NCBI GenBank assembly: GCA_046497275.1
Contig: JAWOFX010000115.1
Span: 1 to 30,470, forward strand
Direction of reading: 5' to 3'
DNA: 30,470 bases
Source: Promethearchaeia archaeon
GTDB taxonomy: Archaea; Asgardarchaeota; Lokiarchaeia; Sigyniarchaeales; SOKP01
Positions 1,407-20,389 of the stretch are shown here, one piece after another. Numbering within the stretch: position 1 is the first letter of the stretch; every line of letters starts with the position of its first letter. The position numbers and the translations under genes were made by a program. The notes below the pieces were generated by a model, which was not told the DNA's origin, made no database searches, and saw only the letters and a program-made list of their open reading frames with translations.

Positions 1407-4370
1407 ATGAGTTACAGCTATAGTCGTACGAAATTAATTGAAAAAATCAAATTTGGATTACTCAGCCCTGATGAGATTCGTAAAATGTCTGCCGCGAGAA
1501 TTATCACGGCAGATACATATGATGAAGATGGGTTGCCTATTCCGTCGGGACTAATGGATCAGCGACTAGGGACGATTGAACCCGGTCAAAGATGCCAAAC
1601 GTGTGGGAATCTCGTGAGTAACTGCATGGGCCATTTCGGGCATAGATAAAATTGGCTAAATTTTATCGCCCAAATCGAATTGGCACGTCCGGTTATCCAC
1701 GTAGGCTATGCGAAAAAGGTCCTAAAAGTTTTGAGAAGTGTTTGTCCTGAGTGTAGTCGCCTAATGCTAAGTGACGAGGCCCGAGAAAAGCACCGTGAGG
1801 AGCAAGTAACACATCGTAGGATTTATCACGAAGGTGATGAGGATATTACGAAGATTGTATTTAAGAGCGCCCGAAAAAATAAGGTATGCCCGTTCTGTGG
1901 TGCAAAAAAGAAAAAAATAATTCTTGAAAAACCTACTACGTTTTATGAAGAAGAAGAGGCAAAAGGTTCTCGGAGATTGACCCCAATCGAGATTCGGGAA
2001 CGATTGAAAAAAATGACCGATGCGGATCTTCGGATTTTAGGAATTTCTCCTAAAAATGCGAGATTAGAATGGGTGATTTTCATGGTTTTACCAATTCCCC
2101 CGGTGTGTGCTCGACCATCAATTACATTAGACAGCGGTATTCGTTCTGAAGATGATCTAACCCACAAATTAGTAGATGTGATTAGAATTAATCAAAGATT
2201 ACGGGAAAATATTGATGCAGGGGCACCTCACTTAATAGTTGAGGATTTATGGGAGCTTCTTCAATATCATATTACTACTTATTTTGATAATCAAGTGTCT
2301 GGAATCCCTCCAGCTCGTCATCGCTCCGGAAGAGCCTTACGTACCCTTACTCAACGATTAAAAGGCAAGGAAGGTCGTTTCAGAAGTAATTTAAGTGGAA
2401 AAAGAGTTGATTTCTCTGCTCGAAGTGTAATCTCACCCAACCCACATATAAGTATCAATGAAGTCGGAGTACCAGAAGAGATCGCGAAAATACTTACTAT
2501 TCCAACGAATGTGAATGATTGGAATATTGAACAAATGAAACAATTAGTCTTAAATGGACCTAATAAGCATCCTGGAGCAAATTATATTATACGAAACGAT
2601 CGACGCAGAATAGATCTTCGCTATGTGAAAAATCGAAAAATTATCGCAGATATGCTTGCACCGGGCTTCACGGTTGAGAGGCATTTAAATGATGGCGATC
2701 TTGTACTCTTTAATCGACAACCCTCACTTCACCGAATGTCAATTATGGCACATGAGGTAAAAATCATGGAGGGGAGAACCTTCCGACTAAATCTTACTGT
2801 CTGTCCTCCATATAATGCTGATTTTGATGGAGATGAGATGAATCTTCATGTCCCTCAAAGCGAAGAGGCGAGAACTGAGGCAGAACTCCTTCTTAAAGTC
2901 CAAGAGCATATCTTATCACCCAGGTTTGGAGGTCCTATTTTAGGAGGCATTCAAGATTTTATTTCAAGCGTATTTCAATTCACCAGTAAGGATTCTCTTT
3001 ATAATGAAAAAAATACGTTAAAGCTTCTTTATATGGGAAATATTTTTGATAACCATCCAGATTTTAAATTGGAGGATTTAGAACCCGTAGTGACAGATCC
3101 CGAGCCAATGTATTCAGGGAAGCAAATCTTTAGTACTCTTCTTCCAGATGATTTGAATATTCGAGTACGCTCAAAATTTTGTAAGAAGTGCTTTACAAAA
3201 CCTGGAGAGGAATGCAAGGAGGAGGATTGTGAATTTGATGCGTATGTCTCGATTACAAATGGAGAGCTGGTAACGGGAACGATTGACGAGAATTCCTTTG
3301 GTGCGATGCAATCAAATAGTATTTTACAGAGGGTTATCAAAGATCATGGAAATGCTCGAGGAAGAGAATTCCTCGATAGTGCCACCCAGATGTTATTATA
3401 TGTCATTCGTCAAAATGGAATGACGATGGGACTTGATGAGGTTTTTGTAAAAGGAGAAGCATTTGAAGAGATACAAAAAGTGTTACATGATTCTACTGAA
3501 GAATCGAAACGCCTTATTAAAGCTTTCCGAGAAAATGATACTGACGTGTTGCAAAGAGCACCTGGGAGGTCATTGAAAGAGACTCTTGAATTACGGATTC
3601 GGCAGGTACTTGCTGAAGCACGTAAAAAAGCTGAAGAAATTGCTGCGAACTATATTGGAGACGAAGCTCATTCCGTTATCATGACAAAATCAGGAGCTCG
3701 AGGAAATATACTTAATCTTGGACAAATGTCTGCTGTTGTGGGACAACAAGCAATAAGAGGTGAAAGAATCAATAGAGGATATACCTCAAGAACATTACCT
3801 CATTTTAAAGTAGATGATCTTACTCCTAAAGCACGAGGATTCGTAGAACAATCCTATAGGAATGGATTAGACCCCTCTGGATTCTTTTTCCATGCTATGG
3901 GTGGCCGAGAAGGTCTTGTAGATACCGCAGTACGTACTAGTACATCAGGATATATGCAAAGGCGTTTAGTGAATGCCTTACAGGATATGGTCATTGAAAA
4001 CGATGGAACCGTGAGAAATGCTGACAAAAATGTCATTCAATTTGATTTTGGAGATGATAATATTAATCCTCAACATACCGATCATGGAGATGCGGTGAAT
4101 TTAGATGTTCTTCTACTTAAAGCTCAAACCCTGGATACCAATGAAATTAAAGAAGAATTAAAACATGTAAAACCTGAGAAACAAGAAAAATCGAAACCAA
4201 AAGAGAAAAAAGAAGAAGTGAAAGAAAAAGGGAAGGAAAAGGGGAAAAAAGTTCCAACTGAAAATCAAATGCAAGATGAATTTGAAAAAGAAACCGGAAA
4301 AAACGCTATTTGGCAAGGAAAAATAACTAAACAATATAAAGAATGGAGAGAAGAAAACTATGGAGTATAA
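1407..4370 (+). CDS. rpoA1: DNA-directed RNA polymerase subunit A' (Rpo1N), two exons 1407-1643 + 1674-4370, 977 aa after splicing
   Basis: N-terminal [16 protein letters not shown], clamp Zn site CQTC..CMGHFGH joined to [30 protein letters not shown], catalytic [10 protein letters not shown], bridge helix [15 protein letters not shown]. The ORF track splits it into 1407..1649 and 1680..4370. Confidence 0.97.
1644..1673 (+). other. 30-nt BHB-type (tRNA-splicing-endonuclease) intron in rpoA1
   Basis: Insert AGATAAAATTGGCTAAATTTTATCGCCCAA, with in-frame TAA at 1647-1649. Central helix GGGC(1638-41)/GCCC(1668-71), 5' bulge AT^A, inner 9-bp stem, 3' bulge AA^A. Removal restores His-Ile of GHFGHIELARP. 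Confidence 0.9.
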
Positions 4371-18760: not shown

Positions 18761-18985
18761 GATTAACAATAATCTTGCTTATATCTTTTTATGACTCATC
18801 CTTTAACTAATCTCTATTAGATTACAATAGACCTCAAATTATTATTATCGATAATTGTTAAATTAATCTTGTTTTTTCTTCTTGCAGACTCGTTAACATT
18901 TATTAATTTTCCGTAAAAAATTTAAATTCCACATCATTTAAATAGAATATCACATCTAAAGTGATTATCTAATCTGATAAAACTG

Positions 18986-19055: not shown

Positions 19056-20389
19056 ATGGCCGATAAAAAACCACATTTGAATCTAGTTATAATAGGGCAT
19101 ATTGACCATGGTATGCTATAACCGTTTCGGTTAATTAGCCCATAAAGTCAACCATGATGGGTGCCCTGTTAATTAAAACAGGTGCGGTAACAGACAGAGA
19201 AGCACGAGAATTAGAAAAAATTGCGAAAGAATTTGATAGAGATTCATGGTCATATGCATACGTATTTGATAAATTGAAAGAAGAACGACAGAGAGGAATT
19301 ACAATAGATCTTGCCTTTAGAAAATTCGAAACACCCAACAAATATTTCACAATCATTGATGCCCCTGGTCATCGAGACTTTGTCAAAAATATGATCACTG
19401 GTGCAAGTCAAGCTGATGCAGCAATCTTAGTAGTTTCCGGAAAGAAAGGAGAAATGGAAGTTGGTATCGCAGCTAATGGTCAAACCCGTGAGCACGCCTA
19501 TTTAGCACAGACCTTAGGCGTTAAACAATTGGTTGTGGCCATTAATAAGGCAGATGTCTGGGATTATGATGAAGATAGATATAAAGAATGTGTACAATCA
19601 GTATCAGCTCTTTTAACAAATATTGGTTTTCCTGTAAAAAAGATTCCGTTTGTACCTGTAAGTGGATTACTTGGGGAGAACCTTACTGAAAAAACCGATA
19701 AAATGCCTTGGTACGATGGTCCTAGTTTAATAGACGCAATTGATGAATTTCAATTACCAGAAAAACCGACTGGTAAACCCTTACGAGTACCTATTCAAGA
19801 TGCATATAGAATTAAAGGTACTGGTGTGGTTCCAGTGGGTAGGGTTGAAACTGGTGTATTAAAAAAAGGTGACCAAATTCTTATTCAACCAACCGGCTTT
19901 AAAGGTGAAATTCGAAGTATAGAGATGCATCATGAAGAAATTCCCGAAGCAGAACCGGGAGATAATATAGGATTTAGTATCCGAGGTCTTACATTAGAAG
20001 ATGTACACAGAGGAGATGTTTTAGGACGACCTGATAATCCACCAACCGTTATTACACCTAAGGGGAGTTTTACTGGACAAGTCATTGTAATTTGGCATCC
20101 TACTGCAGTTGCACAAGGTTATACTCCAGTTGTTCATGCTCATACCGCTCAAGTTGCAGCGAAATTCGTTGAGCTTAAAAAGAAACTTGACCAGAAGACG
20201 GGCGCTGTAATCGAAGATAACCCGAAGTTTATCAAGAAAAACGAAGCTGCTATTGTCACGTTAAGTCCTATCAAGAAATTGTGCATAGAGAAATATGAAG
20301 AGATTCCAGAGATGGGTCGATTCGCGGTACGCGACATGGGTAGAACCGTAGCTGTTGGTATAGTAAAAGATCTTGAAACTGGAGAGTAA
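19056..20389 (+). CDS. tuf: Translation elongation factor EF-1 alpha, two exons 19056-19113 + 19146-20389, 433 aa after splicing
   Basis: MADKKPHLNLVIIGHIDHG|KSTMMG P-loop, ERQRGITID, DAPGHRDFVKNMITGASQAD, NKAD, GRFAVRDMGRTVAVG. The ORF track misses exon 1 and starts at 19154. Confidence 0.97.
19114..19145 (+). other. 32-nt BHB-type intron in EF-1alpha
   Basis: Insert TGCTATAACCGTTTCGGTTAATTAGCCCATAA, with TAA at 19119-21 and a frameshift. Central helix ATGG(19108-11)/CCAT(19140-43), bulges TA^T and AA^A, inner hairpin, outer exon-exon helix. Removal gives GGT AAG TCA ACC (GKST). Confidence 0.92.

Follow-up and report, generated by a model that had tools for sequence, protein, structure and literature searches.

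The rpoA1 and tef1 mRNAs encoded in the window, i.e. the whole stretch of 30,470 nucleotides analysed here (contig C83 of genome G000), are spliced like tRNAs: both genes (rpoA1, 1407-4370; tef1, 19056-20389) are interrupted close to the 5′ end by a small intron of the BHB class, which is removed from the RNA. The exon hairpin around each junction appears to come and go with the intron and not to be a ready-made landing site. The best explanation overall, to which we give a probability of about 0.65, is that this hairpin is an extended outer splicing helix, maintained by codon choice and spread by recombination. The features are listed in Table 1.

Table 1. Features of the two interrupted genes in the window, and contigs of further intron-bearing genes of the same genome.
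Feature	Position	Strand	Remark
rpoA1 exon 1	1407..1643	+	ends CMGHFGH, clamp zinc-binding region, phase 0
rpoA1 exon-exon helix, 5′ arm	1614..1637	+	one register, ~22 pairs
rpoA1 BHB intron, 30 nt	1644..1673	+	fold; missing from 4 RNA runs
rpoA1 exon 2	1674..4370	+	
rpoA1 exon-exon helix, 3′ arm	1677..1700	+	contains Arg codon CGT 1686-1688
tef1 (aEF-1alpha) exon 1	19056..19113	+	stops inside P-loop GHIDHG/KS, phase 1
tef1 distal exon helix, 5′ arm, 11 bp	19090..19100	+	new in this analysis
rpoA1 junction near copy in tef1, G-H-I-D codons	19095..19105	+	intron-free in G000
tef1 proximal exon stem, 5′ arm TTGAC	19102..19106	+	partner GTCAA 19147-19151
tef1 BHB intron, 32 nt	19114..19145	+	fold; skipped in 4 RNA runs, 3 studies
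tef1 exon 2	19146..20389	+	Pfam GTP_EFTU, D2, D3
tef1 distal exon helix, 3′ arm	19161..19171	+	
Further G000 introns	contigs C121, C20, C130, C45, C59, C141, C171, C31		

Both inserts fold into a 4-bp helix between two 3-nt bulges. The central helix of tef1 pairs ATGG (19108-19111) with CCAT (19140-19143) between the bulges TA^T and AA^A, and that of rpoA1 pairs GGGC (1638-1641) with GCCC (1668-1671) and is followed by a 9-bp inner stem with a 5-nt loop. The outer side of the motif is relaxed by a 1-nt bulge in tef1 and by a 2-nt offset in rpoA1. Without the introns, the tef1 frame regains G-H-I-D-H-G-K-S (433 aa) and the rpoA1 frame regains C-M-G-H-F-G-H-I-E-L (977 aa), and the Pfam match Rpb1_1 is continuous over the rpoA1 junction (73|74). 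In four metatranscriptome runs, drawn from three studies of salt lakes, the contigs are nearly identical to the window except that precisely the 30 and 32 intron bases are absent; this evidence for splicing consists of RNA contigs, for which a precise intron-less DNA allele would be the formal alternative. In rpoA1, the 30 nt are absent at 1644; in tef1, the 32 nt are skipped at 19112/19145 with a 1-nt ambiguity, in contigs that begin near 18961 and are joined to 19145/6. For both introns, the removal falls at the predicted cuts, between bulge nucleotides 2 and 3. The genome carries two EndA genes (PF01974) with open frames of 201 and 207 aa, and its EndA is probably an (alpha-beta)2 enzyme. 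The RNA contigs also contain strain variants at window positions 1607 (G>A) and 1613 (C>T), the latter inside the exon helix, where pairing is kept as U-G.

The first-pass annotation had pointed out that the exons still pair after intron removal, and this is correct: TTGAC and GTCAA enclose an 8-nt loop (CATGGTA^A) in tef1, and GCCAtTTCG (1630-1638) and CGAAtTGGC (1676-1684) enclose a 7-nt loop (GGCAT^AT) in rpoA1. Against the codon-shuffled controls that it had named, the hairpins as a whole stand out. Among 2000 synonymous recodings, the rpoA1 stem arises in at most 0.1%, but the tef1 5-bp stem arises in 14-19% and is thus not significant on its own; moreover, when folded freely, the spliced tef1 RNA favours another stem, CATGGT/ACCATG. 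On the other hand, the full exon-exon helices extend beyond these stems to about 22 bp in rpoA1 and about 16 bp in tef1, with predicted energies (seven BHB-internal bases forced unpaired) of -21.2 and -16.7 kcal/mol vs about -5.5 in the recodings (p<0.0005 for rpoA1 and p 0.0005-0.0015 for tef1). In rpoA1 (window 1600-1700), nine consecutive second-codon-position pairs are complementary from the protein sequence alone, in a sense-antisense codon register.

These hairpins had also been likened to tRNA anticodon arms. The likeness follows from BHB geometry, since a BHB motif (defined in PMC7714728) with its outer helix leaves 4+2+1 bases and so a spliced loop of 7-8 nt. Moreover, the 23 tRNA introns of the genome (boundaries hand-set, ±2 nt) lie mostly outside the canonical position 37/38, about nine of them in the D-arm. 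Nor do the hairpins qualify as mimics of an anticodon arm, for which a stem of 5 bp and a loop of 7 nt cut behind its sixth base would have to be shared by the carriers: rpoA1 is cut after loop base 5 of 7, and the tef1 loop has 8 nt, or one closing pair followed by a bulge. The tef1 pair -11:+4 is present in 25% of carriers and non-carriers alike, and the rpoA1 pair -6:+2 in 50% of carriers; only GAY/RTC and the closing C-G of the tef1 proximal stem are kept among intron-bearing relatives.

The association of the helix with the intron is evident across relatives. Searching 150 genomes of the class retrieved 90 rpoA1 and 50 tef1 loci; in five genomes without a tef1 match, the exon 2 query also found none, which makes them uninformative on intron state. 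Introns occur in rpoA1 of 15 genomes, at the same site (site 0) or 4 nt further (+4), and at tef1 site 0 in 8 genomes, while four others have tef1 introns at -7, -13, -25 and -32. The rpoA1 exon helix reaches -17.0 kcal/mol in the 15 bearers vs -7.0 in 74 intron-less alleles, and the tef1 helix -13.5 in 8 bearers vs -6.6 in 43 intron-less alleles; the gene-wide means by the same method are -4.1/-4.7 kcal/mol. The ligated rpoA1 junctions of G013, G122 and G029 were hand-corrected for alignment ambiguity. A gene tree of rpoA1, built from the part 3′ of the site, implies 14 changes of intron state, with the direction of gain or loss not fixed, and 10.6 of 13 independent pairs differ in the same way and none in the opposite way (median p=0.001). 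Individual pairs behave likewise: in rpoA1, -16:+12 is paired in 100% of bearers vs 44% of intron-less alleles, -18:+14 in 83 vs 13%, and -15:+11 is Watson-Crick in 92 vs 20%, while the closing C-G of tef1 is found in 88 vs 19%. The codons follow the same pattern, with CGN for an rpoA1 Arg in 15/15 carriers vs 30/70 intron-less alleles, GCC for an rpoA1 Ala in 14/15 vs 14/70, and AAG for the Lys closing the tef1 loop in 7/8 vs 7/36. The covariation anticipated at synonymous stem sites therefore holds in so far as these sites are paired in bearers and not in intron-less alleles, but what is seen is one-sided fitting and not compensatory change: each pair joins a first to a third codon position, and since the protein dictates one partner, true covariation cannot be shown. 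Hairpin strength graded by distance to the nearest carrier was considered and dropped (rho 0.09 and 0.05, not significant).

The first-pass annotation regarded pre-existing mRNA hairpins as the targets of insertion. This is not borne out, because intron-less alleles stand at a median of only the 26-30th percentile within their own gene, and the hairpin potential that the protein permits is not above background (19 sites; mean percentile 0.41, p=0.16). The rare intron-less alleles that do carry such a hairpin are sisters of carriers.

G000 was compared with 2 Mb of the relative G115 and also scanned for structure and frame, which yielded 14 mRNA introns of 29-32 nt in G000; three of these are without a homologue check, and the one on C79 was compared with a distant paralogue only. 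A structure-only genome scan for BHB motifs gave no length peak and was unusable without homology. The genes interrupted in G000 include two cold-shock paralogues (same site, related introns), TFS, a small GTPase, an ABC ATPase, an enolase-superfamily-like gene and two unnamed genes. At the 12 introns outside the window, the exon helix jointly beats recoding (Fisher p=4e-7), and at 9/9 sites it is stronger in G000 than in the intron-less G115 homologue. The mirror image is found at G115's own two introns, where the helix is stronger in G115 than in G000. These BHB introns have 31 nt at L203:19407(+) and 30 nt at L238:14975(-), positions on the given strand; judged by motif, their hosts are presumably a 2-oxoacid:ferredoxin oxidoreductase-like gene (NTGIQ|ESG) and an argG-like PP-loop gene (SGGL|DTS). 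The UbiA, C141 and cdhA introns have no exon helix, so the helix is not required. As a rival reading, the hairpins could have arisen by chance or through GC content, or could have an mRNA function independent of splicing; this would account for the tef1 5-bp stem, which is compatible with chance, and for the nine consecutive second-position rpoA1 pairs, which the protein fixes. Set against the recoding results for the full helices (p<=0.0015), the joint result at these 12 other sites and the independent-pair association, this explanation is very improbable and largely refuted.

The sites themselves are of many kinds. Both introns of the window had been placed at catalytic motifs, while the rpoA1 site lies at the clamp zinc-binding motif and not at a catalytic one. 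Other introns lie at the UbiA DxxxD motif, Walker B, GTPase G3, RNP1 and zinc ribbons, and the excess of Gly+His around the sites is mild (1.7 vs 1.0 per 10 aa), so that a Gly/His-rich catalytic motif fails as a general rule. The weaker claim that introns persist in constrained sequence is partly upheld: 10/12 sites are above the gene median (p=0.05), although discovery by homology biases this sample. A local rule is clearer. Adenine stands at -2 and at +1 in 15/18 junctions each (p=7e-5), both G115 introns conform, and the central helix strand is GC-rich (54% vs 32% GC). EndA stacks on the first bulge base, which is adenine in the solved complex (PMC12397907), and this stacking may explain the A-N^A rule.

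Close species that differ in intron state show a sharp local divergence, 14-24% around the junction vs 2-8% downstream. The values are 0.236 vs 0.029 for G122/G110 and 0.153 vs 0.022 for G040/G001 in rpoA1, and 0.181 vs 0.049 for G025/G016 in tef1. Intron-less sisters in such clades are often equally divergent from each other, and raised 5′ divergence also occurs in pairs without a sampled bearer (G035/G125, G084/G056). Judging from these sequence comparisons, the tracts suggest that recombination has replaced alleles, apparently in either direction. Moreover, some intron-less alleles with near-identical flanks retain extreme hairpins (rpoA1 of G061, G086 and G081/G082; tef1 of G011, G138 and G021). 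Such hairpins number 5/70 in rpoA1 (0.4 expected, p=3e-5) and 3/36 in tef1 (p=0.009), counts in which kin are not independent, and 7/8 belong to nearest relatives of a bearer. At -18 to -22 they are too strong for neutrality (P 0.003 to 0.0002). We read them as ghosts of precise intron loss; the alternative is to read them as pre-existing targets.

We infer a benefit of the helix for splicing, a direction of change and a mechanism of loss as follows. The exon hairpin would be the outer, exon-side helix of the BHB substrate, extended to ~15-25 bp. Such a long helix would bring both splice sites together in an AT-rich mRNA and would aid cutting by EndA and rejoining by the ligase. With an intron in an essential gene, selection would favour pairing between the synonymous sites on either side. 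Related species would exchange alleles, with intron and hairpin or without the intron, by homologous recombination over 5′ tracts of 100-300 nt, and precise loss of the intron would sometimes leave a ghost hairpin. The sites may be set by the local rule of a 4-nt helix strand rich in GC with A-N^A after it, a combination that G-H-I codons would readily provide, and also by flanks conserved enough for recombination and retention.

A different origin was proposed in the first-pass annotation, namely that excised tRNA-type introns reverse-splice into pre-existing mRNA hairpins, are fixed via cDNA and are kept in constrained motifs. Several observations agree with it. Some intron-less sisters have strong hairpins together with the CGN Arg codon, and the rpoA1 +4 site lies in the loop of the site-0 hairpin, with a high latent potential (2nd percentile). 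Introns of tRNAs and mRNAs resemble one another in length (27-32 nt), in having 5-nt loops and in a WTTC motif (p=0.009 and 0.001, post hoc), and the +4 intron of G040 matches the tRNA-Arg T-loop intron at 14/16 nt, one of 40 tests. Two reverse transcriptase genes lie in open frames of ~1025 aa (C81:1063-1812(-), C10:2966-3724(+)). However, no tRNA donor was found for either intron: against structure-preserving shuffles, the best likeness to the tRNA introns of the genome is 50% for rpoA1 (p=0.27) and 41% for tef1 (p=0.76), short of the at least 70-80% identity by which a transposed tRNA-intron family would be recognised. Neither intron has a copy in the rest of the genome better than shuffles. 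A likeness of the cdhA intron to the tRNA-Asp intron (55% global identity) did not hold up in local alignment. Introns that share a site are homologous between genera, with 70-87% identity among g2, g5 and g6 at a gene distance of ~19%, and therefore the patchiness does not reflect repeated fresh insertion; the 14 state changes are not 14 fresh tRNA insertions. The copies of G000 itself have diverged from the same-site introns (60%, p=0.05; 53%, p=0.16). It also speaks against reverse splicing that typical intron-less alleles lack both a hairpin and a raised latent potential, that the extreme hairpins are too strong to be neutral, and that cDNA of spliced RNA would presumably erase the site-0 intron from two-intron alleles. 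Likewise, a census of Asgard tRNA introns shows no copying or reverse-transcriptase signature (bioRxiv 10.64898/2026.10.13.758758). On balance, we consider reverse splicing unlikely.

The near copy of the rpoA1 junction that had been noticed in tef1, GGGCATATTGA, is indeed present, with the equivalent cut 13 nt upstream of the tef1 intron. It encodes G-H-I-[E/D] in both proteins and is matched within one base in 12/41 relatives regardless of intron state; an 11-nt duplication or a donor scar was rejected, the copy being those codons. G072 carries an unrelated intron exactly at this site (GGACAT^ATTGA), and the C141 intron of G000 lies at GGCCAT^ATT, a match expected at about 0.0006 per A-N^A site, times 12, which is modest evidence. 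The introns at these three G-H^I sites show no homology to one another (p=0.07, 0.87), so that a favourable substrate is likelier than copying.

The three G-H^I junctions (rpoA1, tef1 -13 of G072 and C141) would suit mobility at the DNA level, by homing or short-homology transposition into sites complementary to the intron 3′ end, e.g. GGNCAY^AT, with the flanks co-converted and the hairpin a hitch-hiker from one donor allele. The introns are, moreover, more conserved than synonymous sites, three species with a gene distance of 4-5% share an identical tef1 intron with its flanks, and G040 is closer to G133, which has the same two-intron allele, in the 5′ tract (0.137) than downstream (0.174). 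Against such mobility, bearers do not group as mutual nearest neighbours around the junction once the paired sites are set aside, no relationship links the introns of the three G-H^I sites, and the -13 match is unremarkable given the cluster of tef1 sites and the A-N^A rule. Many genes that are unrelated to one another also have hairpins, and a mobility protein was not identified. DNA-level mobility thus appears quite unlikely to us.

The two genes also show features beyond a single intron site. Introns cluster toward the 5′ end, at tef1 codons 9-20 (five sites within 32 nt) and rpoA1 codons 42, 79 and 80, and none was seen further downstream in the 50 tef1 and 90 rpoA1 loci. At the rpoA1 junction of G133 (L090) and G040 (L092), two introns of 30 and 35 nt lie 4 nt apart; the central helix of the second spans the junction of the first, which imposes an order on splicing. 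In G058, G108 and G129 (L088, L089, L091), the +4 intron lengthens from 35 to 50 and 85 nt through sequence added within an internal bulge and has up to three hairpins, possibly nested introns. In G138, G049 and G122 (L031, L060, L086), rpoA1 frames of ~1500 aa vs 980 diverge at ~nt 1370 and probably contain an intein. A five-base loop C-ATTTC-G, often with a 5′ bulge, recurs in the introns of G000 C31, the C85 tRNA-Arg T-loop, L088, L091, L092 and L094, and could reflect a shared ancestor or a protein-binding site.

It is doubtful, though worth stating, that the tRNA and mRNA 30-nt introns form one mobile pool (9-bp stem, ATTTC-like loop) that inserts at GC-rich A-N^A sites, a resident hairpin being the next landing pad. 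If so, rpoA1 sites 0 and +4 and the five tef1 sites within 32 nt would be such cases, and intron gain in protein genes of the closest prokaryotic kin of eukaryotes would be self-reinforcing. Returning to the reading of an extended splicing helix, the helix appears to result from the intron, and splicing would constrain codon choice in RNA polymerase and EF-1alpha. A ghost hairpin would then betray an earlier intron, and gain and loss could be polarised in pairs of species that are 2-5% apart and differ in single introns. In practice, annotation truncates the rpoA1 or tef1 core gene in about one in ten genomes of the family.

Inteins and homing group I introns occupy conserved, loss-resistant motifs such as P-loops and are patchily distributed. 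Unlike them, the present 30-nt introns have no endonuclease ORF or catalytic core and need host EndA for removal. The closest system is the cbf5 pre-mRNA intron of Desulfurococcales and Sulfolobales (Yokobori 2009, PMC2738675). It too is a small EndA-cleaved BHB intron that interrupts a conserved functional motif in an essential gene; the copies at its one site are homologous in different taxa, and particular lineages have lost it. That intron concerns one gene and is mostly vertical, whereas here at least 14 genes of one genome are interrupted, several sites per gene are used, the distribution is patchy at the level of species with recombination tracts, and synonymous codons follow a long exon helix. 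We found no description of such a codon-tracked helix in the literature searched, nor, in a search of incomplete coverage, a paper on mRNA BHB introns in Asgard archaea. The tRNA introns of Thermoproteales share multiple non-canonical BHB sites, tandem introns and a BHB requirement that specifies targets, but form near-identical families across tRNAs (PMC4090602), while no such family joins the mRNA and tRNA introns of the genome analysed here (best identity 41-55%). The Asgard tRNA introns are similarly patchy, with repeated state changes at few positions; their census leaves the route of arrival open and insertion bias inseparable from retention (bioRxiv 10.64898/2026.10.13.758758). That census covers tRNAs only, whereas mRNA sites have synonymous freedom, so that insertion bias and later selection become separable. 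What is added here to these systems is the codon-level exon helix and its ghosts.
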